28,132 nt of DNA from Elusimicrobiota bacterium (GTDB lineage: Bacteria; Elusimicrobiota; Elusimicrobia; Elusimicrobiales; UBA9959), in assembly GCA_027340875.1 (NCBI GenBank), contig DAIENX010000003.1, positions 1-28,132 of the forward strand. Reading direction: 5' to 3'. The notes below the pieces were generated by a model that made no database searches, was not told the DNA's origin, and saw only the letters and a list, made by a program, of their open reading frames with translations. Within the stretch, counting starts at the first letter, position 1, and each line of letters opens with the position of its first letter. A program made the translations under genes and the position numbers. Positions 1 to 19,584 of the stretch are shown here, piece after piece.

Positions 1-3000
1 CACGTAGATGGTATAGACGTGGTTGTTGGTGGATATCGTCGGCGGATCATAGGTGGCCGGCGGATAGCTCCAGGTTATGGTCGACGCCGAGGAGACGTAG
101 TCCACCGGCAGGTCCACCACCGTGCCCGAGCTCCAGCCGAGCGCCGCGGTGCCGTTCCAGTAGTAAACGTCGCCGCCGGAGACGTGCGTGATCCGGACCT
201 TCAGGCCCGACGGCGGGTTGGCGAGGCCCGACAGGCCGCCGTAGCTCGTGCCAGCTATCAGCGGCAGCGAGTTCTGTATGAAGCTGTTGGCGGTCGGCGT
301 GGAGATCCTGGAGACCGGCGGCGTGCCGTCCACCACGAAGGTGTGCACCGTCCACGGGTTCTGCTCGTTGCCGCCGCGCGCGTCCATCGGCTCGGCCTTG
401 TCGAAGGCCCTTACCCGCAGCGTGTACTGCCTGTCGGAGACCCAGTTGCCGAAGCCGCCGGTGACGCCGTCGAAAGGATAATGCCAGCTGTCGGTGCCTA
501 TCACCTCCTGCCAGGCTCCGTCAAAAGTGACGGTCCAGGAGCTGAAAGCGGAGCCGGTCCAGTAATAGGTGGTGTTCCCCTCCATGTAGCTCAGGTGGAT
601 CTGCGGCGTGCTCAGCAACACGCCCACGAAAGGCAGCGGCGTGTCCGCGGCGCTGCCGCTGAAGGCGTTCACGCCGGTAAGGTTGCCCGGCTTGTACTGG
701 CCCAGGTCCAGAGGCTGGGCTATCGCGGAGGTGGGCGGGGTGCGGTCCCAGATGAAGGTCCTGGACGAGACCCCGCCGGTGAAGCCGGCCTGCACGTTGC
801 CGGCCTTGTCCACTGCCCTGGTCTGCAGCACGTATTCCTTGCCGGTCAGCAGCGCCGACTGCAGGTTGGCGTGCGTGTAGCTCCAGGTATCGGTACCGGA
901 AACGATGTTGAAGGTGGAAGCCGAGATAGCGAAGGCCCCTGACCCGTCCTGCCAGCGTTTGTCGGCCTGCACGTCGTAGATCTGCACCTCGACCCTGCTC
1001 AGGTCGGATTTGCCGTTGGGCGAGTAGACGCCTATCGGGTCGTCGGCGGTCCCGTAGATGCCGGTGATGTTGCGCAGCACCTGATAGCTGCGCGGCGTGG
1101 CCATGTACGACGCCGGCGGCGAGGTGTCGAACAGCACCTGGTAGGAAGCCATGCCGCTCTCGTTGCTCTCCACGTTGCCGGCCTTGTCCTTAGGCATCAG
1201 CAGCACCTTGTAGCGCCTGCCGTCCTGCAGGGCCGGGGTGACCAGCGTCACGGTAGACCAGTTGACAGTGACCTGCGGCACATAGTCGGTCTCCAGGTCG
1301 GCGGTGTTGACGGAGAAGCTGGAGCCTGTCCAGTAATAGCCATTCTCCACGTCCTTGATCCTGACGTATACGTTGCCGCCGAAGCTCTTCTGCAGCGAGG
1401 GCTGCGTGATGTTGCCGGGGTCGGTGGCCGTGCCGGAGAGAGCGGGCATGGCGTTTATATTGGGCGCGTTCGGCGACTGGATGTAACCGACGGGCTTGGT
1501 GTTGTCTATCACCATGCGGCGCTCGGCGTTAAGGCCGAACTCGCCCGCGGAGTTGTACGGCGTAACCGTGACCGTGTAGGAGGCGTTGTCGACCGTGAAG
1601 GCCGCGGGGCCGTTTATGGACTGCACCCAGCTACCGCCGCTGACCCAGGTATAAGTGTCGACGCTCACCCAGGAGAGGGACGGCTCGTACCACCACACGG
1701 ACTGGCCTATGTCGCGGCGCAGCCTGATCTGCACGCTGTCCGCCGCCCGCAGGTTGGTGCCGCTGCCTTTTATGTTGAGCATGTCCCCGGCCATGTAGTT
1801 CCTGTCGTCCGGCCCCATCGGAGTGTCTATGTAGGCCACGGCCTGCGGCGTCTTCAGCAGGAAGTTCACGTCCACGACCTCTATCGTGCCCTTGGACTTC
1901 TGGTTGTTGCCCTTGTCCACGGCCAGCGCTATCATGTCGTACTGGCTCTCGTTGATCCACGGTATGCCGGCGGTGTTCCAGGTCCACGTGCTGTACTGCA
2001 GCGGGTTGGGGTTCACGTTGAGCGTGGCGGTGGCGAACCAGATGCGGCTGTTCGGGTATAGCCCGCCGGGACAGGCCGCGAAGGTATTGGTGACGTTATC
2101 GTAGCAGCGGGGCGCGCCGGTCCCGGTGTTCTGGCGCAGCGACACCACTACGACGTCCGAGGTCTTCAGCTCTCCCGGCGGCACATCGTACGCCGTGCCC
2201 CAGATCTGACTCACGGAGGCGACCTGGCCCACCGGCGCCAAGGTCATCGACGTGGGAGGCGTGACGTCGCCGGTGAAGTAGTTGGTCGTGTACTGGTCCT
2301 CCAGATGGCCCAGCAGGTCCCGTACGCGGCTCATCGCGTAGTACGTGGTGCCGTCCGCGATGGCCCCGCCGGGCAGGGCATAGCTCCACGTGCCGGAGGA
2401 GGCGCCGGAGAAGACCGCGGCGTTCCACCACCTCGCGGGCTCGGTAAAGGCGGTGTTCTTCCACCACAGGCCGTCGGTGAGCCGCTGCATGGCCAGCTCC
2501 ACCGCCACGTTGTAGGTGCTGATGCCGGACTCGTAGATGCGGCCCGCCTCCGGATAACCCTTGAGGTTCTCCACCGAGTCGTCGGCGGTGCCGGTCACGG
2601 CGGGGACCGCGCCGATGAAGCTGTTGTGCACCGGGAAGGTGACCTTCGAAGCCGGAGTCGAGAAGTCGACCAGGAACGTAAAGGTTGAGGTGTAGAGCCC
2701 GGTCAGGTTGTTCAGCGCCTGGTCGCGGGCGTACTGGTTTATGTAGTACTGGTAGCCGTCGGTCTGGGAGGCCGGCGCGACGACCTTGGTCCAGTCCCCC
2801 GCCACCAGGGTGTCGATGTCGTAGTAGTCGTTGGCCGCCACCCAGGCGCTGGTGAAGAAGTTCCAGTACTGCCCGTCCGAGCGGCCCATGCGCAGCTTGA
2901 CCACGTTGACGCCGCTGGGCTCGTCGCCGGTGTTCGGATCGAACGCGGTGCCGCGGATCATGCCGGTGGCGGTGTCTATCGCGAACGGCGCCGGGGCCGT

Positions 3001-6000
3001 CACGTCGGTCAGCGGCGTGGTGTTGTCGAAAGTGAAATAGTACGCGGCGCTGGCGTCGGCGTTCTGGTTGTTGTCTATCTGGACGTTCGTAGGCTTGGCC
3101 TGCCAGTTGCCGGCCTTGTCGTAGCCGCGCGCCCAGACGGAGATCTTCGAGTTGTTGACAGGGGAGAGGGCCGGCAGCGCTATGCTCCAGGCGCCGTTGG
3201 CGTACGAGGCGTCATGCCAGAGGTCGTACTTGGTGACCGGGCTGGTGTCCCAATCGCCTATCACGCCGCCATAGGTGCCCTTCCAGATCGCGTTGTAGGT
3301 GCCGCGGGCCTTCACCAGGACCTTGACCCCCACGATGACGCCGGTATCGGTGACGACGCCGTAGATATAGGGCGCGCTGTACTGGGCCGACAGGTTCACC
3401 GGGGAAGTGGCGAGGGCGACGGGGACCTCGTTGTCGAACTGCACGACGCGCCCCGCCTGGGCCGGGATATCCGCGCCGGCCGGCTGTCCGGAGGCGGGCC
3501 CGAACTCCTTGTTCAGCGCCAGGTCGTAGGCGTAGGTGACGAAGCGGTAGTCCTGCCGCTTGTTAGTAGCGATGGCCCCCTGCAGCGGCGCCGGCAGGTT
3601 ATAGGTCCACGCGACCGTGGCCTGGCCGATGCTGTACGGCGAGGTGTCCACATAGACCTCGGACCAGATAGGCTCGGGCTGGTCGAAGGCGCTGCCGCTC
3701 CACCAGTTGCCGCCCACCAGGCGGACCGCGATCTTGACGGTGTAGGTGCCCAGCGCGGCCTCGTACACCCTGGGGCCGTAGCGTTCGTCGGTGGCCTGGC
3801 CGGAGACTGACGGTATGGAGTTGACGAACTCCGCGGACGGAGAGAGCACCGTAGAGGTGGGCTTGTCCAGGTCGAACTTGGTGGTGACGGAGACCACGCC
3901 GGAATAGTTGCCGGCGTAGTCCTGCACGCGGGCCTCGTACTTGTACTTCTTGTCGCTGTTGAAGGCCAGCGCCGCGGAATTGAAGCTCCAGGAGGTCGGC
4001 ACCCCCTGCGCGGGCCGCCAGACCGGCGCGGAGCAGGGCGTGAAGGACGAGCCGTCGAAGCAGTTGACGTAGCTGCCGTCCGCCAGCACCTCGCTGACGG
4101 CCACGGCGGCGGTGCTGGGGCCGGTGAAGGCGGCCGTCTGGTTGTTAGTGCCGCCTCCGGTCACCGGCGTCGAGACCAGCACTCCGGAGTAGGTGACGCC
4201 GTCGGCCGGATAGGCGATGGACGCCAGCGGCCCCGTTATGTCGTAAGTGAAGGTGAAGGTCGAGTAGAGCGACGAATAATTGCCGGCGTAATCCAAGGCC
4301 CTCGCCACCACGGTATAGGCCGCGTCGTCCCGGAGCATCGCCGGCTGGACGGTGTAGTACCAGGAGGTCGGGCCCAGCGTGGCCGCCTGGCGCCAGACGT
4401 TGGGGTCGTTGGAGTTCGCTGTCCACGCCGAGCCGTCCCAGAAGCGCTCGGCGACGCCGCTGCCCGTGGAGATCTTGACCTCGGCCCTGTCGAAGCCGGC
4501 CACGGCCGCGTTCGCCGTGCCGCCTATGCCGGGCAGCGCGTTCACCGCTACGGCGGCCGGCGTGGTCACCAGCACGCCCGGAGGCGTGTCGTCTATGATG
4601 AAATAGCGGACGTTGACCCCGCGCGTCTGCGCGGTCTCCCAGTTGCCGGCGCCGGTGTGGTCGGCCAGGCGCGCGTCGTCCATGGCCTTGACCTCGGCCT
4701 TGTACTCGCCCTCGCCCATGTTCCAGTTCACGTCCGGCAGGTAGACCCAGTTCCAGATGGCGCCCGCCGGCGAAACTGAGACCGGCTGCCAGGCCGCCTC
4801 GGAGGAGATCGTGGTGACGAAGGAGGCGCCGTCCCAGTAATAGGTGACGGCCCCGAGCAGATAGGAGAGGCGTATGACGCCGGAGGCGACGCCGGCGTTA
4901 TCCGCGCTGTAGTAGCTGTCCTGCATCGTTCCGAACAGCCTGGTGCCGGTGCCGGACTTGCCGACGTTGCCGGACCTGTAGCGGCCGCTGACGCCGTTCA
5001 GGTCGTCGGCGGGCAGCGTGAAGACCGAGGAAGGCGGGGCCTTGTCCACGATAAGCACCGCGGAGGAGACCCCCACCCCCAGGACCTCCTGCACGTTGCC
5101 GCCCACGTCGGCCGCCTTGGCCAGGAAGAGATAGCGCATCGCCGGAGTGCCGGCGGGGGCGTCCGTGAACCTGTTGTCGAAGGAAGCCGGCGCGTAGGAC
5201 CAGCTGGTGGCATTGGCCGACAGATAGCCGCTGGTATTGGCCTTGAGGGCGATCCAGAACGGGTTGGCGCCGTTGTCGAAGAAACCGGAGCCGTCGAACC
5301 AGAGAGGCGGGCTGCCGAGCTGCCGCACCGCGACGTAGACGTCGGAATTCGCGAAATTGTCCACCGCGGTGCCGGCGAGTCCGGCCACCTGGCGCATGCC
5401 GTTGACGGCGTTGGTGGAAGGCACCGCCAGGTAGGCCGTAGGGGAGGCTATGTCTATCGTGAACTGCGCCGCGGCGGCCGCGCCGGAGTTGCCCGCCTTG
5501 TCCGCGGCCGTCAGCTCCACTACGTAGGTCTGGTCCGGCTCAAAGACCTGGTGCGTGGTGAAATAATCGGTGGTATAGTTCAGCGTGCCGGTCTTCAGCA
5601 CGTCGTTCCAGCTCAGCACCGCCGGCAGGTCGGTATACTGGCCGGCCAAGGCGGTGAACGTGGAAGCCTGCCAGTTCCAGTATTCGGCGGCGGCCTGCCG
5701 CCTGACCCTGAAATAGCCCGAAACCACTGTACCCGGGGCGGTGTCGGAGACGGTACCGGACAGGGCCGCCAGGGAATGCAGATATATCTTGTCCGGCATC
5801 GTTATGGCGGCGGCGGGGTTGGAAGCGTCCAGGACGAACTCGCGGCCGGAGCCGGGCGTCTCCGGATAACCGTAGATCTCATGCGTTGCCTTGGAGACCG
5901 CGCGGTATTTCCGGTTGCCGTTCCACGTCGGCAGGGTTATGGTCCAGCCTGGCTTCGGGAAAGTGTTGACGCCGGCGTAGCCGGTGAACGCGGTGGTGGA

Positions 6001-9000
6001 TACCCAGGCCGAGCCGTTCCAGGCCAGATCGTCGTTGCCCTCGTTCTCCTTCAGGTCCGGCCCGTAATCCGTTATGCGCACCGCCACCGTAGTGGCGTAG
6101 ACCGCCGTACCGATTATGGGCGGGATATTGTCGGAACGGTAATGCGGGACCCCCGAAGGCGGCGTGGTTATGTCGGAGACCGGCGGCGGAGGATAGAGCC
6201 GGAACTGTATCAGCGGCGAGTCCGGCAGCGCCTGCGCCGGCTTGGCGACCGCGTTGGCGGCCTGGTCCACCGCCTTGGCGAAGATCTGGTACTGCACGCC
6301 GGCCAGCTCCGTGTACCAGGTAGGGGTGGAAGCTCCCGTGGCCTGCCAGGTGTTGCCGATTATAGTGGCGTCGTAGAACAGCTCCGTGGCGGAATCCCAG
6401 GCGCCGGTGGCGCGGTTCCAGTACTTGCCGGCGCAGACGCTGTCCACGCAGTAGTAGGACAGCCGCACCTTGTCCAGCGTGCCGGGCGCGAAATCGGAGG
6501 CGGAGCCCGTTATGACGTTCAGTTCGGCGTGCACCCCGGCCCCGTGGGTGGGATAGGTGACGGTGGAAACCGGCGGCGTGAAGTCGGCCTTGATGTTGGT
6601 GGCCGTGGCGTAGACCAGCTGGTAGTTGCCGGCCTTGTCCACCGCCCAGGCGTTGATCTCGTAGGTCTCGCCGCTCTGCCAGGGGGCCGTGTTGAGTTGC
6701 CACCAGGTCGCGGCCGGACTGAGAACGCCGTAGGACTGCACGCTGTTCTCCAGGGCGGCGACCGCCCACGAGGAACCGGCGATGCTCCAGTACTTGCCGG
6801 CGTTCGGGCCGGTCAGCTGCTTGACGCGCACCCTCAGGTCGTTCACTATACCGTTGGGGCTGTCGTACGAGCCGCCATAGATCTTGCCGGTCTGGCTGAT
6901 GTAGCCGTTGTCGTACGGATAGAAGATGGCGGCCGTGGGACGCGTTATATCGTAAACGAACGAGGCCTTCACCCCGTAGCCTTCCTGGTTGGTGGCGGCG
7001 TCGTTGGCGCTGGTCTGCACGGTGAAGCGCCTGCCGTCGTTCCCGGCGTACATGGCGGGGTTTATGGCATGGTCCCAGCCAGTCCAGGGCGGATTGGCGC
7101 CCAGCGGCTGCGGCGTGAGGGCCCAGCCGTTGACGCCGTTCCAGTACCAGCCGTCGGAGTCTCTGGTGATGTAAAGCGAGATGTTCGAGACGCCGGAGGA
7201 GCCGGGATCGTAACTGGTGCCCAGGACCTGCGCCGCCTGATAGTTCAGATGGGAGCCGTCGGCCGGCACGGTCACGGTGGAGACGGGCGCCTGGTTGTCA
7301 TAGAGGAAGGTGGCCGTGGTGTAGATGGTGTCGTAGTTGCCGGCCACGTCCAGGCCGCGCGCCCGGATGCGGTACGTGGCGCCGCTGGTCCAGGTGGAGT
7401 TCTGGATATTGTAGGTCCACGAGGAAGAACTGGCGTACAGGACCTCCTGCAGAGGCAGCCAGGGCGCCGAGTTCTCGGACGCGCCGGTGGTCGACCAGGG
7501 CGGGTTCAGCGACGGGTCGTAATACTTGTTCAGCGAGGTCATGAACACCGTTATGCGCGTCTGCGCCACGGCGACGTTATCGCCGGTGGTACCGGCGATG
7601 TTGGGCAGAGAGTTGTAGCTCGGCAGCGACGGCAGCGTTATATAGCTGACCGGCTTCTCGTTGTCGTAAGTGATCACGCGTCCGGTGCCGGCCGGGATAT
7701 TGGCGGCGAGAGGCTGGCCGCCGCCGGGGCCGTACTCCGGGTTGAGCGCGAGGTCGTAGGCCCACGGCACCAGCCGGTACTGCAGGTTCTGGTTGGCCGG
7801 CGCCGCCAGGTAGGTGCGCAGCGCGGCGGGGAGGTTGTAGGTCCACGTTACGGTGCTCTTGCCGGTATCGTAGGCGGAGGTGTCCACCGCCGTCTCGAAC
7901 CAGACAGGGTCCGTGGCGTCGAAGAGGTTGTTGGCGCTCCACCAGTTGCCGCCGACCAGCTGCAGCGCCACTTTAACGGTATAGGTGCCCAGGTTGGCGC
8001 GATAGGTATCCGCCACGTCCGCGGCCTCGCCGCTTATCCGCGTGAAGCCGGTGGTATATCCGGTCAGCGGATAGGTTATAGTAGAGGTCGGGGACTTGAC
8101 GTCGAACTTGATCGTCGCGGCGGCCGGCACGGACTCGTTGCCTGCGTAGTCCACGGCCTTGGCCTCGAACTTGTACTGCCGGTTCCCGGAGAGGTCCAGG
8201 TTCGCGTTGTTATAGCTCCAGGAGGCGAGCCCGGCAGCCGGCTGCCAGGAGGGGCAGGCGCCGAAGGATACGCCGTTGAAACAGGTGGTGTTGCCGAGAT
8301 CGGTGATCTGCAGGTAGACGGCGTTCACCTTGGAATAAGGGTCCGTCTGGTCGTTCTGGTCGGAGGCGCCGGCCGCTGGCGTGGACAGCCTGATGCGCGA
8401 ATAGGCCTCCCCGTTCAGCGGGAAGGACAGGGAGACGTGCGGCGGCACCGAGTCGTAGGTGAAGACGTAGGTGGAGTAGAGAGTGGAATAATTGCCGGCG
8501 TAGTCCCTCGCGCGCGCGGAGGCCGTATAGGGGGTGTCGTCGGAGAGTATCGCGCCGGGCACGGTGTAATACCAGGAGGTCGGCCCCTGTTTGGTGGTCA
8601 ATATCCAGGTATCGGGAGAGGCGGACCAGGCGGAACCGCTCCAGTAGCGGGCGGCGGCGCCGACGCCGGTGGAAATGCGTATCTCCGTATACTGGTGCCC
8701 CGCCAGGTCCGCGTTGGCGGTGCCGTAGATGGTGAACGGGGCCTTCTGCGCCAGTACCGACGCCGACGGCGTGGTTATCAGCACGGACGGCGGCGTGGTG
8801 TCCAGCACCACCTCCACGTCGGCGCCGAAAGTACCGGAATTGGGCGGCACCGCGTCGTCTATGCCGCGCACCGCTATCATGTATTTCTCGTCCGAAACCT
8901 GGTTAACGGCAGGCAGCGTATAGACCCAGTTGCCGGAAATGAAGGCGCCGGGGGACACCTCGGAGGGCGTGGCGGACCACGTGCCTCCGGTCCAGTAATA

Positions 9001-11937
9001 GGTGGTATTCCCCTCCAGCCGGCCGATGCGCAGCCTTATGTTAGTGACGGCGCCCATCCCGGCCGGGGTGTCGGAGGCGTTACCGCTCAGGGTCCAGGCG
9101 CCGTTGGGGTTCACTTTCCCGTAGCCGCCGGTATCCTCGTAGCCCGTCAGCGCCACGACCGGCGGCTGGGCGTCCCAGACTATGGTGAAGGAGGAGACGC
9201 CGTCGGCATAGACCTGCTGGGTGTTGCCCGGGGTCAGCGAAGTATCTTTGGCCCGGCTCCAGACAATGTACCAATAGCCCTGGGTGAAAAAGCCCGGGGG
9301 AGGCATGTGCGAATGCGTCCAAGAGGAGACGGTGACGTTGGGCACGTGCACGGCGGCGGTGCCCCAGTAGATATCGTCGCCCTCCGGCCGCGTGGCGTCC
9401 CAGTTCCCGCTATCCCAGCGCCAGTAGCTCGGCAGGGGCTCTACGTCCTGGGCCGGCCTCTTGAGATGCAGCAGCACCTTGTCCAGTTTGCCGGCGGTGC
9501 CGCCGGGGCCGGCTATGTCCCAGGCGGTGCCGGAGACGGCGTCCAGCGAGGAACGCACCTGGCCGCTGACGGCGGGCACCGTGGAGTTCACGGCGATGAA
9601 GTTCTGCAGCACCGCCGTGGGAGAGGTCCTGTCCACGAGGAAATCCACCGCCGACCCGGTCTGCACGTTGGCCGCCCTGTCGGTGACCTTCGGCGTTATC
9701 CTGTAAGCGGCGCCGTCCGCCCACGCGGGCAGCCCGGTATTGACGGACCAGGCGCCGGCGTTGAAAGTGGTGGTGGCCCAGACCACTCCGTTCTGCCAGG
9801 CCGTAGTGACCGGGTTCCAGTAGGTGGTGGAATAGGACAGGTCCTGTATGGTTATCTCCGCCTTTTCCACCTGCCCCGGCGCCGTGTCGGAAGCGTTGCC
9901 GGAGAGCTGCGGGACGTTGCGGTAGATCGCGGGACCGGGAGAGGAGATAGAAGCGGCAGGCAGCGTGAGGTCGTACGTCACTATGTTGCCGTTGAGATCG
10001 ATGGCCTGCTCCTCGCCGGCCGGGCCCACGCCCTTGGAAAGGAAGTAATAAGAAGTATTGTCCGTCCACGCGGAGGTGGAGATGCTGTCGGTCCACTCCC
10101 AGTAAAGGCTGGAGTCCGGCAGGACGGTGATGTTGCTGACGTTGAAGTAGGCGCGGGGCGCGGCCGGCCCCGGCATCGCGCCGGGGGCCGAGAAGGAGCT
10201 CCCGTACCAGTAATAGCCGTCGCTCAGCCTCTCGACCGACACTTTCACTCCGGAGAGTATGGAGTAGGCGAACTTGGTCGCGCCGCCGGAAATGACCTGG
10301 GGCTTCGACTTGGTGAAGGTGTTGTTGGACGGCACGCTGATCCAGGTGTCCGGATACGGGGCGCTGTAGTAGAAGTTCTTCCGCCAGATCATGGTCTCGG
10401 TATTGGCGGCCTTGTCGCGGGCGTAGGCGCGGACCGAGTACCAGGCGTTGTTCCACTGCCAGATGATGTCCGGGATGGTGTAGGTCCAGTTCCCGGCGGC
10501 CAGCGTGACGGAGGAGACGGGGAGCCAGGTGGTCGCGTTGTTCTGCCAGTTCTGGCCGTCGAAGGTCCAGGCCACCGCGCCGCCCTGCCCGGAGGGCGTG
10601 TAGGCGAACTGCAGGAAGACGTTGTCCACTACGCCCGGCGCCACATCGGAGGCGGTGCCGGTCACCTGCGGCAGAGGCGACGAGCCGTAAGTGGCCCCCT
10701 CCGCCGGCAGCGTGATCGTGGACGTGGGAGCCGTGAAATCGGCCTTGATGCTGGTGGCGGTGGAGTAAACGAGCTCCGCGTTGCCGGCCTTGTCGACCGA
10801 GTAGGAGTTGAACTCGTAGGTCTCGCCGCTCTGCCAGGGGGTGGCGTTCAGCTGCCACCAGGTCGCGGCCGGGCTGAGCGTGCCGTAGGAAACGACGCTG
10901 TTCCAGACCTCCGGCGCGCTCTCCACCGTCCAGCTGGAGTCCAGCACCCGCCAGTAATGCCCCGCCTTGGGCCCGGTCAGCTGCTTTATCCGCACCTTCA
11001 CGTCGCCCACCATGCCGTAGGGCTTGTCGTAGGAGGAGCCGGCGGCCTTGCCGGTCTGGCTGATGTAGCCGTTGTCGTACGGGTAGGTGACGGCGTTGGT
11101 GGGGCGGCTGACGTCGTAGACGAAAGTGGACTTCACGGCGAGAGCCTCGGAGTTGGAGGCCGCGTCGTTGGCGTAGGCCTCTATGTTGTACCTCTCGCCG
11201 TCTATGTAAGCCGCGACCTGGCTGCCGATGTCCCTGCTCCAACCGGTATACGGCGGCACGGTAGGCAGCGATACCGCCGGCGAGGCCTGCCAGCCTACGC
11301 CGGTCCAGTAGTCGCCGTTGGACTTCCTCAGATAGAGCGTGACGTTATTGACCCCGGAGAAGCCGTCGAAGGCGGTGCCGGTTATCGTTATCGGATAGGC
11401 CGACAGCGGCAGGTGGGAACCGTTGGCCGGGTAGGTCACGCTGGAGACCGGGATCTCGGTGTCGAACTGGAACGCGCCGGTGGAATAGACGATATCCCAG
11501 TTGCCCGCGCCGTCCATGGAGCGGGCCCTGACCCGGTAATGGGCGCCGCTGGTCCAGGTGGAGTTCTGTACGCCGTACGTCCAGGTGGCCGAGGTGGTCC
11601 ACAGCGTCATCTGCGGGGAGATCCACGGCGCGTCGTTGTCGGTAAGGCAGCCGGCGGTCTTCCACGGCGGGTCGAGCGACGGGTCATAGCACTTGTTCTG
11701 GTCGTAGTTGAAGATGCTGAACGCTACCGCGCCTACGGCGGTGTTGTCCACGGCGTCGCCTTTCAACAGCGTCAGGGTATTATAGGCCGTCTTATACGGC
11801 TCCTGCACGGTGGTGACGGGGCGCTGGTTCAGGTAGTCGCGCGTGGAATAAATGACGGAGTAGTTGCCGGCGTAGTCCAGCGCACGCGCCGACACGGTGT
11901 AGGTGGTCTTGGCCACCAGCATGGAAGCCGGCACCGT
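1..11937 (-). CDS. In-frame continuation of the giant Ig-repeat protein (~3,979 codons, ~31 more Ig-like domains), 3'-truncated by the window edge
   Basis: Manual translation after the TAA continues TVPASMLVAKTTYTVSARALDYAGNYS.... The same frame yields Ig-repeat motifs down to base 1 (...STITWSYPPATYDPPTISTNNHVYTIYV). The ORF track lists no minus-strand ORF ending in this frame below 11938, consistent with no further stop; the continuation is presumably unlisted because it has no stop inside the window. Confidence 0.9.
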
Positions 11938-14150
11938 TTAATACCAGGACGTGGGGCCCATCCGGATGGAATCGTTCCAGGTCTCCGGGGCCGCCACCCA
12001 GGACGACGCCAGGCCGTCCCAGTATTTTATCGCCGCGCCGGTCCCGGTGGAGATGCGCACCTGCGCCTTGTTGAAGCCGGCAAGGTTCCCGTTGGCCGTG
12101 CCGTAGATGTTGGTATCGGAGGTCAGCGAGAGCTCGGTCGGGGTGGTTATGGCCACGTCCGGAGGGGTGTCGCAGATCACGAACTTCATCAGGTTCTGGC
12201 CCTGGGAGAGAACTGTCTCCCAGTTGCCCTGGCCGATACCGTCCCACGGGCGCGTGGCGTCCATCGATCTGGCTTCCAGGGCGTATTCCCTGTCCCCGGC
12301 CGGCCAGGTTATATCGTTGGGATAGATCCAGCTGCCGACGCCGGAGGCGTTGACCCAGGAGGCGGACAGCGCCGCGGTGCCGGAGCTGAAAGAGGTGCCG
12401 ATCCAGTACCAGGTGTCCCCGGAGAGCAGGTAGGACAGGCGTATCAGCGTCTTCTCCACCCCGGCGTTGTTGGCGGCATAGAAGCTGTCCGACGCCGAGC
12501 CGTAGAAACGCGAGGACGTGGCCGTCTTGCCGATATTCGCCGACTTGTAGCGGCCGCTCAAGCCGTTGGAGTCGTCAGCCGGGAGCGTGACGGAGGTCGC
12601 CGGCGGCGCCTTGTCCACGAAGACCACGCGCGAGGACACGTCCACGACGAACTGGTCCTGCAGGTTGCCGGCCACGTCGGTGGAGCGGGTCAGCAGCAGG
12701 TACTTGAGGCCGCCGGGAGAGGCGGAGTCCAGGCCGGCCGGGGCGTAGGCCCAGCTGGTGGCGTTCGGCGAGAGGAAGCCGTTCGCGCCGCCTACGTACA
12801 GCCAGTAGGGGTTGGACTGCAGCGCGTTGAAGCCCGTGCCGTCGTACCAGAGCTGCGGGCTGCCCCACTGCTGTATGGCCACCTGCACGCTCTCGTTCCG
12901 GCCGTTGTCCGCCGCGGTGCCGGAAAGTTCCGCGATGATATTGACCCCTTGCAGGCCGTCCGGCAGGAGTATCCGGGCCGTAGGCGAGGCGGTGTCTATG
13001 GTGAACTGCTGGTAGGGCGTGGGGAAATATTTCTGCCGGCCGGCCTTGTCGGTGATCCTGACCTGGACCTCGTAGGTCTTGCTGTTCTCGAAGGCCGGCA
13101 GGCCGGTGTTCAGGTGCCAGCCCTCGGAATTGGAGTCGAAGAACCCGTCGTCCGGCACGGCCGGCAGCCAGACCGCTCCCGAAGCGGTCCAACTGGAGCC
13201 CGTCCAGTAATAGGTGCCCGACATCGTGGAGATATCCACCTCCACGTTCACCACCTTGCCGACGCCTACGTCCGACGCCAGGCCGTAGATCGAAGGGACG
13301 CTGCGCTCGTACTGCGCGTTCGGTTCCGCGAGGGTGGTGGCCGGGTCGTCGCCGTCTATATAGAAATATCTTTCCGGCAGCGGCGTCAGCTCCGGTATGC
13401 CGTCGATGTCGGAAGCGGCCCTGGACTTCACGCTGAAATACGCGGTGCCGGCTGGCCAGATGCCTGCGGTGGCCCTGCTCCAGTTCGGCGCCGCTATGCT
13501 GTCCACGCCGAAGTAGCCGCAGGTGGACTTCCCGATCACATAGGTGGAGTCGGTACAGCCGGCCAGATAGGTGACCGTGGAGATCCAGCCGCCCGGGGTC
13601 CAGACCTGGTTGGGGGTGACGCTGAGATCGGTTATCATCACCTGCACGGTGTCCGCGGCCTGCAGCGTGCCGCTGATGACGGCCAGGTCCGTAGGCCGGT
13701 AGTACGGCACGCCGCTGGGCGGCACGGAGATGGTGGAGTCCGGCAGCGGCGTCACCTTGTTGATCTTGATGAGGGAGGACTGCGCGGGCGGCGTGGTGAA
13801 GCCGGCGTAGCCGGGCCAGGCGGTCTTGTTGTCCACCAGGTCCGTGGCCCTGGCGAAGACCAGGTAGCTCTGGCCGTTGACCAGCGCCGGCACGCTGGAG
13901 CCGGTCACGGTCCACGGCACGGGCGTGGCGGTGGAAGTGGAGGCCTCCACGTAAGCCAACTCGGGCGGCGGGTTGATGCCGTCGCCCAGGCTGAAAGTGC
14001 CCACGGTGGCCGGGTTCCACCATTTCTGCGCCGTAAGGCTGTAATAAGCCACCTGCACCCGCTTGACACCGGTGTAGGTATCTGCGGCGGTGCCGGAAAG
14101 GGAGCTGAACACGTACACGTCGGCCGTTGCCGGCGACTGTATGAGGGTGG
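1..14150 (-). repeat. 11-domain Ig super-repeat (~4.15-4.3 kb period), about 3.5 units visible
   Basis: Approximate unit starts at 14150, 10725, 6570 and 2255. Recurrent landmarks: VSS..V.D..PP (12620, 9190, 5065, 765) and GPTSWY(Y)TV (11945, 8570, 4360). An identical 36-nt stretch occurs at 6883-6918 and 11047-11082, and a 29-nt stretch at 6658-6686 and 10813-10841. Confidence 0.8.
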
Positions 14151-17100
14151 TGGGCGGGGTGCGGTCCGGACGGAAGGTGTTCTGGTTGCGCCCCTGGGAG
14201 AACACTGATTCCACGTTGGACTTGAGGATGTTGTCCTTGTCCAGCGCGCTGTCCGCCGCGCGCACCCTGACGCGGTAAGGCCTGCCGTCCACGGCGGCCG
14301 CAAAGAGGGTGGAGGTGTTATAAGTATAGGTACTGTCCGCCACCAGGGCCATGTCCTTCCAGGTGGCAGCGCCGCCGCAGGCGCCGCTGAAATCGGTGCC
14401 GTTCCAGCAGGTGAGCGTGACCTCGTCGCGCACCTCGGCCTGCATGCCGCTCACCAGGCCGCCGGAGGCGAGTCCCGTGAGCGGCAGGTCCACGGCCGAG
14501 CCGACTATCGCCGAGAGCTGGTAGCCGGCGTTATTGCTGTACCAGGAGTTGTCAGAAGGCGACAGAATGGTGGAGGTGGGCGGCTGCACCTCGTACTTGA
14601 AGGTCTTCTTGAGCGTGGTCGAGGACTCGACGTTCCGGAAAGTGCCGTCGGGCAGGTCCACGTTGTCCTTCGACCAGGCGTAGACCTTGAACTCGTCCGC
14701 GGTAGGAACGCCCGTCCAGAAGCCGCCCATGCTCTGGTGGTTCCAGGAAGCGGCCGGCGACTGGCAGGAGTCGTTGCGGCTGGCCTGCCAGCCGTTGACC
14801 GTGCCGTTCCACCACAGGCCGTCGGACTGGCGCTGCACGCCTATGCAGGTCATGTTGAGGCCGGACTGGCGGGTGGTGTCCGGCATGTCGTTGGCCGTGC
14901 CGGAGATGTTGGTGAGGGCGGTGTCGGAATAGGTGGCGCCGGTCAGCGGGTTCAGCACCGCGGTAGCCGGGGGTGTGGCGTCGTACCTGAACACCACCGT
15001 GGAATATACGGTGGAGTAGTTGCCGGCCTTGTCCAGCGCGCGGCCCACGTAGGTATACTGCTCTCCGGAGAGCCACGCTATATTGGAGGACTGCCACACA
15101 TCGTAGGGGACCGTGGTGGTGGTCCCGCCCACGTTCCAGATGTCGTTCGTCTGGTCCAGCCACAGGGAGGAGGCCTTATCCCACTTCGCCAGCGGCGGGT
15201 GGCTCAGCGTGTACTCGGTCTTCGACACCTTGGAGAAGCCGTCGTTGGCGGTGCCGAGCAGCCGGACAAGGGAGTTCAGTCCGTAATTACCGCCGGAGAC
15301 CGGGAAGGTTATCCCGAGGGTGGGGATCTCGCTGTCGTAGAGGAAGTAGCCGCTGGTGGCCGGGGAAAGGGCCGTGCCGGTGGAGTTATTGGCGGCGTCC
15401 GCGGCGTATACCGCCACGTCGTACCAGAAGCCGTTCTTCCAGTCGGTGGAGACGCCGATGCTGAACGGGTAGGGGTCAGAGGCCGGTGCGTACTGCGCGT
15501 ACTGATAGATGGGGCTTGGCGAAGCGCAGCCGCTGCCCCACTTGTCCGCGCCGCCCTGCTCGTAGACGCAGTAGTAGACCCGGCGGGTGCCGATGACGTT
15601 GTCCACCACGTTGTCCAGCAGGCTGCCCTGCAGGAAGTCGAAGGAGTTGCGCCAGACGTTGGCCGGGTCGCCCTGGGAGACCGGCGCGTTGGGCATCAGC
15701 GCCTCCGGCACCGTGACGGTTATCGTCGGCGCGGTGACGTCGTAGTAGAAATCGCGGCTCAGGCCCACGGTCTGGGGATTGAACTTGTCGGAGGCTCTGG
15801 CCTGGATGCGGTACTTCCTGCCGTCTATCCAGGCCGGCAGCTTGGAGTGCGCTACGTTGTCCGGGACGGCCTTGACTATGAAGTTCAGCGACTTGTTGAG
15901 ACATTCGTCGCCGCAGGAGTAATTGGTCAGCGTGCCCGGCGGAGAAGGCAGCTGGACCACGTAGTACCAGGTGGCGGGGACCTGAAATCCCGTGGCGTCA
16001 AAGCCGGTCCAGTAGGTATCGTCGTTGCCAACCGCCTCGCCTATCGTGCCGTTGGGACCGGAGTTTATCAGCTGCATCTGCACGCTCTGGAGGCCCACCC
16101 CCGCGTCGGCGGCCGTACCCTGTATGCTGAGCAGGGAACTGTTGCTGGAGTTGGGGACCGGCATAGTGAAGTTGACGCCGGGAGGCGACTTGTCTATCTT
16201 GAACGTCACCGCGCTGGAGGGGTTCCCGAAGCCCCTGTCGCTGGTCTTGCCGCGGCTCTCCAGCGTGTAGGTGGCCCCGTCGGCCTGCGCGGCGGCGTCG
16301 TTGGGCCAGCCGCCGTTGGACCAGGTGGTGATGCCGCTGGTGACCTGCAGCCACTGCTGGCCGGAAATGGCGGGGTCCACGTAGTTCACGGAGTTCCACT
16401 GGTAGCCGTCGGAGCGGGTTATCCTCATTTCGGGGGCGATGTTGCTCTGGCCCGCCGCCGGCGACAGGCCGGAGACGCCGGTGATCTGCGCTATGCCGCT
16501 GGAATAAAGTATGGGCTCCACCGGGTAGGTGAGGTCGGAGGAAGGCACGGTCACGGTGGCCACTCCGGCCTTGAAGCCGTCGCGGCCGTCCCAGTTCGAG
16601 ATGAAGGCGTCCATGGGCCCTCCGGCGACGGACTGGTCCACGGTGAAATGCGCCTGGATCTGCGTGGCGCTGTTGTAGGTCACGCTGGTGATGGCCACGC
16701 CGGCCACCGCCGAACCGTTGCGGGAGAACATGACGCCCGGGGCAGGATTGTTCAGGAAGCCTGTGCCGGTGAAGGTGATGTCGTAGGTGGGGTCCGTGGC
16801 GTAGTCCACCAGACCGGCGCCTATGCCCACGGTGGCCGGGGAAGCGGAGGTCACGCCGGGCGGGGCATTGTTCGACGTGGGCAGCCTGTCGAATTCCACG
16901 ACTCCGCCCGCGGTCCAGGCCACGGGCACGGGATAGGGCAGCTGTATGTAGGAAGGCGCCTGCGGGGAAGTGGCGCCGCCGGCGCTTTGCTGCCAGTCGC
17001 GCGTTATCGAGAATTCGCCGGCGGCGGTGGCCGTGGCCGGTCCTACGGCGTAATTGACCGAGCCGTACGTGGAGAGATAGATGATGTAAACCTTATTATA

Positions 17101-18243
17101 GGAGGCGGCGTCGGCGGCGTCCTTGGCGGCGTATACTACCGAGGGCTGGCCGTAAGGGGTGGCGAAGGCGGCGCCGAGATTGTCTATGGCGAGGGGCCCG
17201 ACGCCCCACGTGCCGGCCGCCGTGCGCCGCATGTAGACCAGCGAGCCGGTGTTATCGATAAAGGCCAGATGCACTACCGAGGCATTGGGCTCTGACGCCA
17301 TGGACGGGGCATAATACGGGTCGTTGCCGCCGGTGCCGGGGGCAGTGCTCCATTCGCGGGCCTCGTAGGTGGTCCCGTTATACCGGTGTATCCTCAGCGA
17401 GCCGGGGCGGTCGCTCCGGTCCACCTGCGCCTCTATCACTTTCCAGGTGCCGCCGTCGTTCACCGGCACTATGGTGCCGAACTGCTTGTAGGGGCCGGCG
17501 CCCTCGCTGGTGCGGTCGTTCTGGTCCACCGATATCACCGTTCCGCCCACGAGGTTGAGCCCCACGTCCGGCTGGCCCAGCACGGAGGTCTGGGTACCGC
17601 CGCGGCGCTTGGCGTCGCAGACCCAGGCCACCGCGCCGGTGGTCATGTTGCCTATCAGCGCTATGCTCACGTTGCCGCCGGCGTAGCAGTCCGAAGGCGT
17701 CCTGCCGTCCACGTTGCCGGTTATCGGCCGGGTCTGCAGGCCGCCCCAGGTGATGCTGCCGTCCGCATTGAGCGTGCCCTTCTTCAGGAAAATGTTATTG
17801 GCTGGGGGAGGATTAGTGGGATCGGTATCCGCGGACGGGTCGTTGGCCACCGCGTAGACCACGCTGTCGGTGGCCACGTAGTAGACGCTGCCGTACATCA
17901 GGTTCACGCTGCCGCCGGCCTCGATGGTGGAGATGGCCACCTCTTCCGCCGACCAGGTGGCGCCGTTGAAAGAGCGGCTGGCGAAGCCTTTGGCGTTCTC
18001 GTAGAACACCCAGGTACGCTTGTAGCCTTCGCTGTAGAAGACCTTCCTGGAGGCGGGCCAGTCCGTGCTGTCGGCGCCGCTTATGGGCTGCGGAGCGGCG
18101 TAGCCCGGCAGGCGGAACGCCGCAAGGGCGGGGAGGAGCAGGAGCAGGGCGGCGGCGGCGCGGCCCTTGAAGCGGGCGGCAAGGACGGAGGCGAGGCCTT
18201 TAAGGCCCGCCGAGTTCCTCCGTTCTCCCGCTATAGCCGGCAT
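11938..18243 (-). CDS. Giant exported Ig-like repeat protein (putative adhesin/surface protein), N-terminal 2101 aa up to an internal TAA
   Basis: ORF track 2101 aa. Basic N-region plus hydrophobic stretch (RFKGRAAAALLLLLPALAAFRLPGYAAP) resembles a Sec signal. ~16880-18090 is a beta-rich, propeller-like region. ~16560-16870 is IPT/TIG-like (PPGVTSASP..YDITFTGTGF..VTYNSATQI). Then ~12 repeats of 115-150 aa with pattern D.T.P...I..P / GTA.D / YW.G..W / Y...RA.D.AGN, typical of bacterial Ig-like domains. Domain family names are by eye, not HMM. Confidence 0.88.
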   Translation of the reverse strand: MPAIAGERRNSAGLKGLASVLAARFKGRAAAALLLLLPALAAFRLPGYAAPQPISGADSTDWPASRKVFYSEGYKRTWVFYENAKGFASRSFNGATWSAEEVAISTIEAGGSVNLMYGSVYYVATDSVVYAVANDPSADTDPTNPPPANNIFLKKGTLNADGSITWGGLQTRPITGNVDGRTPSDCYAGGNVSIALIGNMTTGAVAWVCDAKRRGGTQTSVLGQPDVGLNLVGGTVISVDQNDRTSEGAGPYKQFGTIVPVNDGGTWKVIEAQVDRSDRPGSLRIHRYNGTTYEAREWSTAPGTGGNDPYYAPSMASEPNASVVHLAFIDNTGSLVYMRRTAAGTWGVGPLAIDNLGAAFATPYGQPSVVYAAKDAADAASYNKVYIIYLSTYGSVNYAVGPATATAAGEFSITRDWQQSAGGATSPQAPSYIQLPYPVPVAWTAGGVVEFDRLPTSNNAPPGVTSASPATVGIGAGLVDYATDPTYDITFTGTGFLNNPAPGVMFSRNGSAVAGVAITSVTYNSATQIQAHFTVDQSVAGGPMDAFISNWDGRDGFKAGVATVTVPSSDLTYPVEPILYSSGIAQITGVSGLSPAAGQSNIAPEMRITRSDGYQWNSVNYVDPAISGQQWLQVTSGITTWSNGGWPNDAAAQADGATYTLESRGKTSDRGFGNPSSAVTFKIDKSPPGVNFTMPVPNSSNSSLLSIQGTAADAGVGLQSVQMQLINSGPNGTIGEAVGNDDTYWTGFDATGFQVPATWYYVVQLPSPPGTLTNYSCGDECLNKSLNFIVKAVPDNVAHSKLPAWIDGRKYRIQARASDKFNPQTVGLSRDFYYDVTAPTITVTVPEALMPNAPVSQGDPANVWRNSFDFLQGSLLDNVVDNVIGTRRVYYCVYEQGGADKWGSGCASPSPIYQYAQYAPASDPYPFSIGVSTDWKNGFWYDVAVYAADAANNSTGTALSPATSGYFLYDSEIPTLGITFPVSGGNYGLNSLVRLLGTANDGFSKVSKTEYTLSHPPLAKWDKASSLWLDQTNDIWNVGGTTTTVPYDVWQSSNIAWLSGEQYTYVGRALDKAGNYSTVYSTVVFRYDATPPATAVLNPLTGATYSDTALTNISGTANDMPDTTRQSGLNMTCIGVQRQSDGLWWNGTVNGWQASRNDSCQSPAASWNHQSMGGFWTGVPTADEFKVYAWSKDNVDLPDGTFRNVESSTTLKKTFKYEVQPPTSTILSPSDNSWYSNNAGYQLSAIVGSAVDLPLTGLASGGLVSGMQAEVRDEVTLTCWNGTDFSGACGGAATWKDMALVADSTYTYNTSTLFAAAVDGRPYRVRVRAADSALDKDNILKSNVESVFSQGRNQNTFRPDRTPPTTLIQSPATADVYVFSSLSGTAADTYTGVKRVQVAYYSLTAQKWWNPATVGTFSLGDGINPPPELAYVEASTSTATPVPWTVTGSSVPALVNGQSYLVFARATDLVDNKTAWPGYAGFTTPPAQSSLIKINKVTPLPDSTISVPPSGVPYYRPTDLAVISGTLQAADTVQVMITDLSVTPNQVWTPGGWISTVTYLAGCTDSTYVIGKSTCGYFGVDSIAAPNWSRATAGIWPAGTAYFSVKSRAASDIDGIPELTPLPERYFYIDGDDPATTLAEPNAQYERSVPSIYGLASDVGVGKVVNVEVDISTMSGTYYWTGSSWTASGAVWLPAVPDDGFFDSNSEGWHLNTGLPAFENSKTYEVQVRITDKAGRQKYFPTPYQQFTIDTASPTARILLPDGLQGVNIIAELSGTAADNGRNESVQVAIQQWGSPQLWYDGTGFNALQSNPYWLYVGGANGFLSPNATSWAYAPAGLDSASPGGLKYLLLTRSTDVAGNLQDQFVVDVSSRVVFVDKAPPATSVTLPADDSNGLSGRYKSANIGKTATSSRFYGSASDSFYAANNAGVEKTLIRLSYLLSGDTWYWIGTSFSSGTAALSASWVNASGVGSWIYPNDITWPAGDREYALEARSMDATRPWDGIGQGNWETVLSQGQNLMKFVICDTPPDVAITTPTELSLTSDTNIYGTANGNLAGFNKAQVRISTGTGAAIKYWDGLASSWVAAPETWNDSIRMGPTSWY

Positions 18244-18987: not shown

Positions 18988-19015
18988 ATTATAATATAAA
19001 ATCGTTGTTTCGCAA
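18988..19015 (-). promoter_or_regulatory. Possible sigma70-type promoter upstream of the HEAT/giant gene pair
   Basis: TTGCGA (19015-19010), 16-nt spacer, TATAAT (18993-18988), within an AT-rich patch. Confidence 0.45.
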
Positions 19016-19136
19016 ACGTTAAAAAGCCGTGACATGGGCCGCGCGCCCGGGCGCGCGGGAAGAGGACGGCCCTGGGCCGCCATTATAATCCTGCCTGGCA
19101 TTCCGGCGTGGGACATCCTTGCCTCCGGCGGGGCCC

Positions 19137-19210
19137 AAAAAAGGGCCGTTTCCGCTCTCTTCGCCTCAACCCGGTTCTGGGCTGATACCCCGAAGACAGC
19201 GGAAACGGCC
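19137..19210 (-). terminator. Long intrinsic terminator hairpin (riboswitch expression platform)
   Basis: Arms 19191-19210 and 19144-19163 pair at 19/20 positions, with an inner stem UCAGCCC/GGGUUGA. The hairpin is followed on the minus strand by CUUUUUU (A-run 19137-19142). Confidence 0.8.
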
Positions 19211-19254
19211 TGAATCCGTTCCGCAACGCCGGCATAAAGCCGTACGGTCCCTGG

Positions 19255-19338
19255 TCTTCGGCAGCCTGACCCCCGTTCACGTAACGGGTCTTAGCTTTGC
19301 GCCGCCGGCTTTGGCCGGCTTTGCTATTATCGGTACGC
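19255..19338 (-). ncRNA. GEMM-I (c-di-GMP-I family) riboswitch aptamer, A20 variant (candidate 3',3'-cGAMP sensor)
   Basis: The minus strand reads CCGAUAAUAGCAAA-GCCGGC-CAAA-GCCGGC-GGCGCAAAGC-UAAGACCCGUUACGUGAACGGGGGUCAG-GCUGCCGAAG. This matches the family skeleton G.....RGCAAA-stem-loop-GRCGCAAAGC-P3-GCCGAA in order and spacing. Confidence 0.82.
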
Positions 19339-19373
19339 TTCTAAAACTACTGCCCCGGCTTCCTACTGAAACA

Positions 19374-19481
19374 CCCCGCCCTTTTGGGACACACACCGCG
19401 CTACCGTCACACCGCGTCTGTCTGCGACCGCAACTGCACCACCGCACCGCTGCCGCACTGCACCAAGCCAAAAGGGCGGGG
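19374..19481 (-). repeat. Perfect 14-bp inverted repeat enclosing an 80-nt loop of GCRGU-like repeats
   Basis: ccccgcccttttgg (19374-19387) pairs with ccaaaagggcgggg (19468-19481). Plus-strand ACCGC occurs at 19395, 19411, 19427, 19441 and 19446, with single-mismatch variants at 19403, 19433, 19452 and 19457. Confidence 0.85.
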
Positions 19482-19556
19482 CACGTCACTGAAGGTGCCG
19501 TATCAGGGGCTATGCCCATCGGACGGCCACCGCGAACCACGCCTCTCCGCGGTTAT

Positions 19557-19584
19557 ATTATAGCAGACGGATACGGTTTGTCAA
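19557..19584 (-). promoter_or_regulatory. Consensus sigma70 promoter with extended -10 driving the riboswitch leader
   Basis: TTGACA (19584-19579), 16-nt spacer ending in TGC, TATAAT (19562-19557). Predicted transcription start is about 19550. Confidence 0.85.

Follow-up and report, generated by a model that had tools for sequence, protein, structure and literature searches.

We describe here an RNA domain in the 5' leader of a giant-gene operon on contig DAIENX010000003.1 of an Elusimicrobiota bacterium, in which a long, perfectly paired stem encloses an array of the pentamer GCGGU. The window, by which we mean the whole stretch of DNA that was analysed, covers positions 1–28,132 of this contig; all features of the leader lie on its minus strand, and the genome from which it comes is a 2.8-Mb assembly of 64 % G+C that is 92 % complete. 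The analysis shows a genuine, conserved stem, an enriched word that has been retained, and a modular domain, which occurs with or without a cyclic di-GMP (c-di-GMP) riboswitch and also as part of an independent small RNA (sRNA). The reading that we favour, at a probability of roughly 0.45, is that an RNA-binding factor acting in trans docks on the element, which would be a modular, multivalent domain. The comparisons that follow draw on 80 genomes of the family, 43 of them from the window's genus and 37 from twelve other genera.

The original prediction, which was made from the letters of the window alone, proposed a novel RNA element in which a perfect 14-bp stem closes an 80-nt loop, and the two arms are indeed exact reverse complements (coordinates in Table 1). 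The loop consists of 9 A, 17 C, 37 G and 17 U (67.5 % G+U), G far exceeding C and U exceeding A; 'G-rich with a G/U skew' fits it better than the strong G/U skew first claimed. Five exact GCGGU words, as had been counted, stand at 19450-46, 19445-41, 19431-27, 19415-11 and 19399-95, but the one-mismatch words number five rather than four (GCAGU 19461-57, GCGGC 19456-52, GUGGU 19442-38, GCAGU 19437-33 and ACGGU 19407-03); GCGGG is located in the 3' arm. None of 5000 mononucleotide shuffles of the loop reached five copies (mean 0.35, maximum 3). The genome-wide background of GCGGT is 1.9 per kb per strand, and on both strands of the 2.8 Mb only six 120-nt segments hold at least five copies, namely this locus and five others, in all of which the words are scattered inside open reading frames (ORFs) of 1.2–3.7 kb. 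A scan of the same genome for CGGU density returned only the sRNA described below and two other places. Tandem Repeats Finder, applied to 19300-19560, called no array except the aptamer hairpin, because the words of the array are too irregular. The predicted fold of the domain (−60.8 kcal/mol) was equalled by none of 200 dinucleotide shuffles (−46.3±3.4 kcal/mol; z −4.3), an excess that is due to the outer stem, since for 33 orthologues the interior of the loop gave folds no more stable than those of its shuffles (mean z −0.39, 0/33 below −2). The earlier statement that no known family could be recognized agrees with Rfam 15, which at gathering thresholds gave nothing but c-di-GMP-I and, with E up to 10, only rows over 19367-19501 with E 8 and scores far under the cut-offs. 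The array had also been placed correctly between a promoter and the aptamer. The alternative pairing suggested for the 5' arm, UGCCCCG with CGGGGCA at 19357-19351, is present in the sequence but not conserved, as it occurs in one of 33 linkers, that of the window itself.

A covariance model of the domain (model R1), built from 20 orthologues and run over the 80 genomes, found 36 copies of 57–145 bits in 35 of the 43 genus genomes, one in each except G002, and nothing above 39.4 bits in the 37 genomes of the twelve other genera. BLAST of 19340-19560 against the window's own genome revealed no second copy of the stem-loop. Among 34 orthologous loci examined, 33 were located by pattern; in G004 the stem is interrupted. 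The outer helix comprises 15 pairs, which are formed in 100 % of the cells of the alignment with none broken; eight pairs are invariant and five have changed on both sides, e.g. CCUCGCCCAUCUGG with CCAGAUGGGCGAGG. No column shuffle out of 500 reached the observed level of covariation, and when the 3' partners were slid out of register pairing fell from 97 % to 38–50 %. The G-U pairs occur only on the G-rich strand, which assigns the structure to the minus strand as RNA (or as single strand). Across ten genome pairs the identity of the stem-loop was 80–99 % and that of the aptamer 91–99 %, against 36–82 % for the spacer past the riboswitch terminator and 26–100 % for the 5' tail, one further value, for the expression platform, being an anchoring artefact. 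The leader domain is neither a chance hairpin nor a dispersed repeat. A covarying, strand-specific stem without counterpart in Rfam bears out the call of a novel RNA element, and neither a lack of conservation in relatives nor a scatter of copies through the genome, two of the weaknesses to which the original prediction had itself pointed, was found.

The array inside this stem is far less constant than the stem. Over the 33 loci the stem-loop measures 99–151 nt with 3–8 GCGGU and the enclosed loop 71–123 nt, and in the relatives the 5' tail, from the −10 box to the stem, ranges from 21 to 175 nt with 0–8 GCGGU, the words beginning at the inferred transcription start (in the window near 19550, a position that was inferred and not mapped). 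Together the array parts of the 33 loci contain 268 GCGGU in 4309 nt, i.e. 62 per kb as against 1.9 genome-wide, and GCGGU is their commonest pentamer, 15-fold over the expectation from composition. Among the extended words GUGCGGU is the most frequent, and spacings of 5 and 6 nt are seen most often. Judged from these alignments, selection appears to act on the word and not on its positions, GCGGU being kept while copy number and spacing drift. One alternative is that the domain has no specific partner and serves structure or stability, its clamp and C-poor, G-rich 5' region guarding the long untranslated leader against 5'-end-dependent decay or Rho loading, or insulating the folding of the aptamer. 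The array is in fact G-rich and C-poor (G 46 %, C 20 %), and RNA of this kind is the opposite of a Rho loading site; the untranslated leader, from its promoter P1 to the first start codon, extends over ~650 nt, and the interior of the array has no specific fold. We nevertheless regard this explanation as unlikely: it leaves unexplained a 15-fold pentamer excess that is beyond composition and has been kept through repeat turnover, the recurrence of the words in a separate sRNA and the existence of a stand-alone form, and other riboswitch leaders of the same genomes do with 36–90 nt and no array.

The separability of the domain from the riboswitch is seen directly in the genus. In 33 of the 36 R1 copies a c-di-GMP-I aptamer follows within ~10–75 nt (27 recognized by pattern, those of G086, G002a, G074 and G004 by Rfam, and those of G084 and G013 from adjacent matches); of the remaining copies one is cut by a contig end and two are stand-alone units. 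In the latter (G002:C237, locus L030, and G012:C108:49400-52900, locus L120) P1, array and stem are followed ~20 nt on by a canonical terminator, without an aptamer, and c-di-GMP-I has no match anywhere in G012. Both units precede a gene for a FliG/TPR protein of 611 aa with a lipoprotein-like N-terminus, the middle and C-terminal domains of FliG, and TPR repeats. The window's own genome provides the reverse case on contig C99, where a riboswitch with the same palindrome, P1 and aptamer has a 50-nt leader without an array. An array without riboswitch in G002 and G012 and a riboswitch without array on C99 make the two separable modules. In locus L052 (G080:C303) one strand carries a pair of c-di-GMP-I aptamers separated by ~1 kb, of which the upstream member follows the array domain.

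Outside the genus the layout persists with a different stem. For 40 c-di-GMP-I aptamers of ten other genera the preceding 350 nt were inspected. No array was found in the leaders read from g8–g11 and g13–g15; three leaders of genus g17 (211–262 nt) contain 5–9 GCGGU each, and six leaders (three from g17, two from g16 and one from g12) share a second stem type, in which 14–15 of 15 pairs form between the arms (U/C)CCCGUUAG(A/C)GGCGC and GCG(C/A)C(U/G)CUAACGGG(G/A), with a compensatory change of A-U to C-G. This second stem encloses 73–112 nt with 46–50 % G and 4–7 CGGU words, and stands 8–40 nt before the aptamer; further downstream come the same terminator platform, an AT-rich promoter block, a HEAT-repeat gene and a giant ORF. 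Because other genera keep the layout with a different stem, it is the architecture and not the stem sequence that is conserved, and it has remained linked to the orthologous operon. The word CCCGCCCTTTTGG from the arm of the window's stem occurs (with at most one mismatch) 174 times in G070 and 106 times in G068, both of genus g16, compared with ~20 times for a reversed control, but in the window's own genome 6 times compared with 13 for the control. The simplest history is that the window's genus acquired a common palindromic clamp in place of the inner part of its stem. In g16 itself the copies (e.g. L066, L067, L069 and L072) are mostly inverted pairs 25–70 nt apart around unrelated inserts, and one copy lies inside a signal-peptide ORF.

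The dispersal of the arm word in G070 and G068, and repeat numbers that drift as in slippage, might also be taken to mean that the leader element is what is left of a mobile or repetitive palindromic sequence that became fixed, its microsatellite drifting without function. We give this very little credence. The domain is a single orthologous copy in 35 of 43 genomes, and the own genome shows neither enrichment of the arm word nor a second copy; compensatory changes preserve the stem, other genera keep the architecture with another stem, and the identity of the stem-loop is well above that of the neighbouring spacer.

A second class of RNA carries the same words. A search for three tandem words in 401 genomes of the phylum gave mostly noise, yet it led to the sRNA loci; its period-6 matches were coding glycine repeats and several period-5 matches in other families lay inside genes, and these were set aside. 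In the window's own genome the sRNA is encoded at C13:15234-15549 on the minus strand (L141/L143), with a paralogue at C69 ~6300-6665 on the plus strand (L142), and BLAST found it in 30 of the 42 other genus genomes and in one of g17. Its length is 313–414 nt, with 3–14 GCGGU each, in the 26 of 29 fetched loci for which a promoter was found. Behind the promoter (TTGACAAGTCAA...TGTTATACT) come a 5' end that is conserved and an array of GCGGU, GGUCUGGU and GUGUG that is variable, then a conserved C/G-rich 3' domain and a strong terminator; the 3' 200–235 nt align between genomes, whereas the variable 5' part does not. In an alignment of 26 sequences a conserved 7-pair stem, GCGCCGG/CCGGCGC, encloses the entire variable array, and the top words that this array has in common with that of the leader are GCGGU, UGCGGU, GCGGUG, GUGCGG and GUGCGGU. 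Rfam has no match for the sRNA family, and related array-rich sRNAs are present in genus g15. In a small genome of another family, f2, a G-rich, C-poor RNA of ~400 nt with a promoter, six GCGGU and a terminator (L122, G149:C2:180361-180876) is possibly an analogous sRNA.

Within the first 25 nt of the sRNA (L143-L171) there are boxA-like words, UGAUCUUU and UGCUCUCU, of the type G(A/C)UCU(U/C)U, and these resemble the boxA-like CGAUCUUUAAAAG and UGCUCUCUAAAAA in the rRNA leaders of G020 (L173) and G079 (L174); the pattern had to be widened by hand to reach 26 of 26 sRNAs. A 5' end of this kind may fit protection of a long untranslated RNA by Nus factors. No gene for an RNA-binding protein was found among the neighbours of the sRNA that were read. 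Directly upstream of it, in six of seven loci read, is the gene for a conserved secreted protein (~310–400 aa, no Pfam match; Table 1), which is not found there in the own genome, and the genes downstream differ between loci.

Another conceivable mode of action is base pairing, the array being an RNA–RNA sponge or seed array whose G/U-rich words pair with C/A-rich RNAs. Repeated short words are also typical of RNA sponges, and GCGG is complementary to CCGC, which is common in a genome of 64 % G+C. Such pairing seems to us improbable, given that neither strand of the own genome contains a complementary ACCGC array and that the best duplexes of the leader with the two own sRNAs are no better than those with shuffled sRNAs (z +1.5 and +0.5).

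Turning to proteins that might read the array, the own genome gave no match to CsrA, none to TRAP (Pfam TrpBP) at E up to 1, and neither Hfq nor LSM proteins at its 92 % completeness. It does encode three RRM_1 proteins of ~105 aa with RGG tails (C80:18904-19113, C80:19922-20131 and C101:42495-42704), and these are the only candidates for array binders that we have seen. Single-RRM proteins are described as global RNA binders in Bacteroides, also in the absence of Hfq and CsrA (PMC11697453; 10.1101/2021.04.27.441718), and one of them is described as binding single-stranded RNA and a G/U/A-rich repeat probe at 5 µM (10.1101/2021.04.27.441718) and as not binding a C/U-rich probe (PMC11697453; 10.1101/2021.04.27.441718). 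The multivalent landing pad that had been proposed at the outset is in our view the best reading of the element, indirectly supported by retention of the word, by the stand-alone form and by the second class of RNA; of its suggested models, CsrA and TRAP, neither was found in the genome.

The other function proposed at the outset, a loading site for processive antitermination (RfaH/LoaP-like or RNA-only) that would allow transcription over more than 18 kb, is disfavoured. The operon is certainly very long, and the array offers GCGGUAG-like words that may be reminiscent of the ops element. We consider a role of this kind highly improbable. The suggested search for NusG paralogues yielded none: 28 of the 43 genus genomes have one NusG N-terminal domain and in 15 none was found, i.e. 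no genome has more than one. Moreover, an antitermination complex loaded at the array would override the riboswitch terminator that follows it, a conserved promoter (P2) lies downstream of that terminator, and the stand-alone form ends at a terminator. The boxA word G(A/C)UCU(U/C)U occurs in only two of 33 leaders, where it is inside the stem arm.

The features of the leader and operon are collected in Table 1. All 33 orthologous loci have the palindrome TTGACnnGTCAA (in one of them TTGCTCTGTCAA) ahead of the promoter, as do 28 of 40 other leaders with c-di-GMP-I in the family. The sRNA promoter has it too, there overlapping the −35 box, and the palindrome is thus a candidate operator common to the leaders and the sRNA. 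P1 is present in all 33 pattern-located loci. Between P1 and the stem the window contains a ~35-nt hairpin repeat that occurs at 15 other places in the own genome and hundreds of times in the genus (BLAST of 19340-19560 and further searches). The relatives that were read lack it at this point and have more GCGGU words there instead; comparison with them indicates that it is an insertion into the leader that disrupts the window's 5' tail. In G014 and G002 the same repeat sits between stem and aptamer. The repeat is often in tandem and often followed by a second small hairpin, it has been inserted at differing points of the leader in different genomes, and its inner hairpin covaries among copies (GCGC, GGGC, GAGC).

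Past the aptamer, a run of at least five U is present in 25 of the 27 loci with enough sequence, and CCGAAGAC, at the 3' end of the aptamer, is complementary to GUCUUCGG in the 5' arm of the terminator hairpin. The promoter block containing ATTATAAT lies 210–445 nt past the stem in 24 of 27 loci, and this 8-mer occurs only 46 times in the 2.8-Mb genome; the figure refers to the simple count of ATTATAAT, as a stricter pattern for P2 matched just 6 of 27 loci. The P2 block (18988-19035) contains a direct-repeat-like word, UAAC...GAAAC / GUAAC...GUAAC, over its −35 region, and it is followed by a hairpin and a U-rich stretch immediately ahead of the start codon.

Table 1. Features of the leader and operon in the window, from upstream to downstream, and of the genes that precede the sRNA in other genomes
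Feature	Position	Strand	Remarks
S41 peptidase gene	ends 19603	−	upstream of the whole leader
Palindrome TTGACGCGTCAA	19595..19606	−	10 nt 5' of the −35 box; overlaps stop codon of the S41-peptidase ORF
Promoter P1, TTGACA-16-TATAAT, TG-extended	19557..19584	−	12/12 consensus matches
Remnant of the 5' tail of the array, GCGGAGAGGCGUGGUUCGCGGUG	19530..19550	−	from comparison with relatives
Inserted dispersed ~35-nt hairpin repeat, GGCCGUCYGAUGNGCAUAGCNCCUGAUACGGCAC	19495..19529	−	outside the array domain
Closing stem, 5' arm CCCCGCCCUUUUGG	19468..19481	−	G at 19482 extends the stem to 15 pairs
Array loop, 80 nt	19388..19467	−	5 exact and 5 one-mismatch GCGGU; centre GGUCGCAGACAGACGCGGUG and 3' end GCGCGGUGUGUGUC conserved
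Closing stem, 3' arm CCAAAAGGGCGGGG	19374..19387	−	exact reverse complement of the 5' arm
Linker to aptamer, 38 nt	19336..19373	−	contains window-specific CGGGGCA (19357-19351)
c-di-GMP-I (GEMM-I) aptamer	19257..19335	−	Rfam, 55 bits; gathering score 35
Terminator-like long hairpin and U6 run (19142-19137), putative riboswitch expression platform	19137..19211	−	read from sequence and alignment
Promoter-like P2, TTGCGA-16-TATAAT	18988..19015	−	inside conserved AT-rich block UUUAACGUUUGCGAAACA...
First gene, signal-peptide HEAT-repeat protein, 213 aa	18259..18900	−	HEAT_2, 1e-31
Giant ORFs, 2101 aa (18243-11938) and at least 3978 aa (11934-1, open at window end)	1..18243	−	bacterial Ig-like domains
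Secreted-protein genes upstream of the sRNA	L146:271-1194, L159:268-1188, L165:2019-2987, L145:1923-2903, L164:188-1207, L152:127-1323		

Our current working hypothesis is that (U)GCGGU(G) words, in varying number and at varying distances, would be displayed in series inside the long closing stem, with more words in the free 5' tail, and that a factor reading (U)GCGGU(G) would act on all transcripts from the strong P1. As the array is upstream of the riboswitch terminator, it is part of the RNA whether transcription ends there or reads through. In the first case the short RNA would consist of array and aptamer (~410 nt in the window) and, because it includes the array, could act like a protein-titrating sRNA. 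The riboswitch would set how much transcription proceeds to the giant adhesin-like operon, which would additionally be served by its own promoter, P2. Since CCGAAGAC can pair with GUCUUCGG, ligand binding would presumably favour termination, so that high c-di-GMP would give the short RNA of array and aptamer and low c-di-GMP would give read-through. The position of P2 after the terminator, together with the stand-alone loci, suggests a function for the P1 RNA beyond that of an mRNA leader. We infer that a protein binds the words of the array, the RRM-RGG proteins being candidates only, and its binding may affect the stability of the RNA, termination at the U-rich tail past the stem, or titration of the factor. 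It is tempting to go one step further and to speculate on a Csr-like circuit built on the word (U)GCGGU(G) in a family without CsrA and Hfq, in which the sRNA, supposed to be abundant, and the leader compete for one factor, perhaps an RRM-RGG protein, and the riboswitch chooses between titrating RNA and read-through. This fuller scheme is doubtful, if attractive; if true, it would couple the level of c-di-GMP to the availability of a global RNA-binding protein.

Several observations weigh against a docking domain. The genomes compared are related and do not count as independent observations. Of the 80 family genomes 73 have RRM_1 genes, among them genomes with an array and genomes where none was found, and the distribution of these genes therefore does not discriminate. 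The words themselves are mostly paired in the predicted structures, with a mean unpaired probability of 0.31 as compared with 0.39 for other loop positions, and this predicted pairing does not suit a simple binder of single-stranded RNA. Furthermore, the centre of the loop, GGUCGCAGACAGACGCGGUG, and its 3' end, GCGCGGUGUGUGUC / GGUGUGUGUC, are nearly invariant in the genus, and the constancy of GGUCGCAGACAGACGCGGUG and GGUGUGUGUC could reflect a specific fold and not a mere array; an inner helix is possible between the GGUCGCAGACAGACGCGGUG centre and the GCGCGGUGUGUGUC end, with little covariation. Separately, a G-quadruplex is not favoured: it was absent from the predicted minimum-energy fold in 31 of 33 orthologues and present in two.

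The evidence for transcription belongs with these points. The stretch is present in four sequencing runs, all of DNA, and three metatranscriptome runs contain 5 % of its words, from relatives. RNA-library contigs of relatives (80 % likeness, two studies) cover the stem-loop: one of 248 nt spans 19255-19484, i.e. aptamer and stem-loop, and two others (167 and 169 nt) cover 19374/19410-19484 and extend upstream. These contigs weakly support transcription of the leader domain, coming as they do from relatives, showing neither ends nor strand and possibly representing carry-over of DNA, and flanks that no contig covers are uninformative.

A last point on this side is the sequence that follows the stem. 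The linker of the relatives is shorter than that of the window and U-rich (YGUUUAUUU...), and 27 of 33 genus loci have at least five U in the first 10 nt, with a U6 run directly past the stem in G013. A very stable, G+C-rich stem of 14–15 bp with a U-rich tail might be a purely RNA-based terminator or attenuator placed before the riboswitch, a transcription checkpoint at which the G-rich repeats, or a factor bound to them, would time the pairing of the arms. This we hold to be quite unlikely. The sequence after the stem is UGUUUCAGUA in the window and CCUUC... in three relatives, no consistent U run is seen in the six leaders of other genera, and no U follows the stem that encloses the array of the sRNA. 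The canonical terminator of the two stand-alone loci, ~20 nt on, can be reached only by transcription through the stem. Our terminator scan made no call at the stem, because the loop greatly exceeds 8 nt.

With regard to previous work, our literature search, which left subscription journals and supplements outside its scope, found no description of the element and nothing that joins Elusimicrobia, riboswitch and c-di-GMP, and a search for 'GCGGU' with 'repeats' gave only unrelated work among the matches listed. In a word search, the preprint on giant genes (10.1101/2023.11.21.568195) mentions neither riboswitch, leader nor antitermination.

The interest of the domain is that it joins an uncatalogued, covariation-supported RNA structure with a testable word and two natural contexts, the riboswitch leader of a giant operon and a free sRNA. 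To our knowledge, post-transcriptional control is almost unexplored in the Elusimicrobia, as it is in other phyla that lack Hfq, CsrA and ProQ, and the leader array makes the question of what replaces Csr- and Hfq-type regulators in these bacteria directly testable. A riboswitch behind an independent, exchangeable module also bears on how leaders integrate several signals, and on the functions that riboswitch-terminated RNAs may have of their own.

A number of known systems resemble the docking domain in part. In the Bacillus trp leader, 11 (G/U)AG triplets, 2–3 nt apart, wrap the ring protein TRAP. The array described here is similar in its short words, its period of 5–6 nt, its position in a 5' leader before a terminator decision and its number of words; unlike the trp leader, it has the word GCGGU in place of (G/U)AG, a long closing stem and a free tail, it is found both in tandem with a riboswitch and within an sRNA, and no TrpBP protein was found. 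An array present both in a dedicated sRNA and in an mRNA leader has the sponge-plus-target layout of CsrA/RsmA with CsrB/RsmZ, and the words shared by sRNA and leader bear on whether the system works like Csr/Rsm, not on whether it belongs to it. The differences are that GGA is rare (28 in 4309 nt, against 268 GCGGU, and none in the window's loop), that the GCGGU words are not in hairpin loops, that only one leader per genome has the array and that no CsrA was found. EutX of Enterococcus and Rli55 of Listeria are riboswitch-controlled sRNAs that sequester a regulator, their protein site lying downstream of the riboswitch and being removed by ligand binding. Here, too, a transcript-ending riboswitch and a proposed protein site are part of one RNA, but the array is upstream, in both terminated and read-through RNA, and ligand, protein class and motif differ. 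With the ops elements of RfaH, the LoaP leader and the boxA-boxB-boxC sites the domain shares a promoter-proximal position before a very long operon, and we take the G/U-rich words of the array to be reminiscent of boxC and ops; it differs in that NusG paralogues are absent, that boxA occurs in leaders only within the stem arm, and that it stands before a terminator platform and P2. Its perfect inverted arms, and the dispersal of the arm word in g16, recall repetitive extragenic palindromes, bacterial interspersed mosaic elements and repeats like miniature inverted-repeat transposable elements, whereas the leader domain is single-copy, orthologous, covarying and tied to one operon, and its arms are replaceable. 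Tandem leaders, composed of two riboswitches or of a riboswitch and another element, likewise combine two independent modules, each of which also occurs alone; unlike in tandem riboswitches, the first module here is no known aptamer, and its length and repeat number vary as those of aptamers do not. As an RNA family the domain is new; as a repeat array read by a factor, it follows a known logic.

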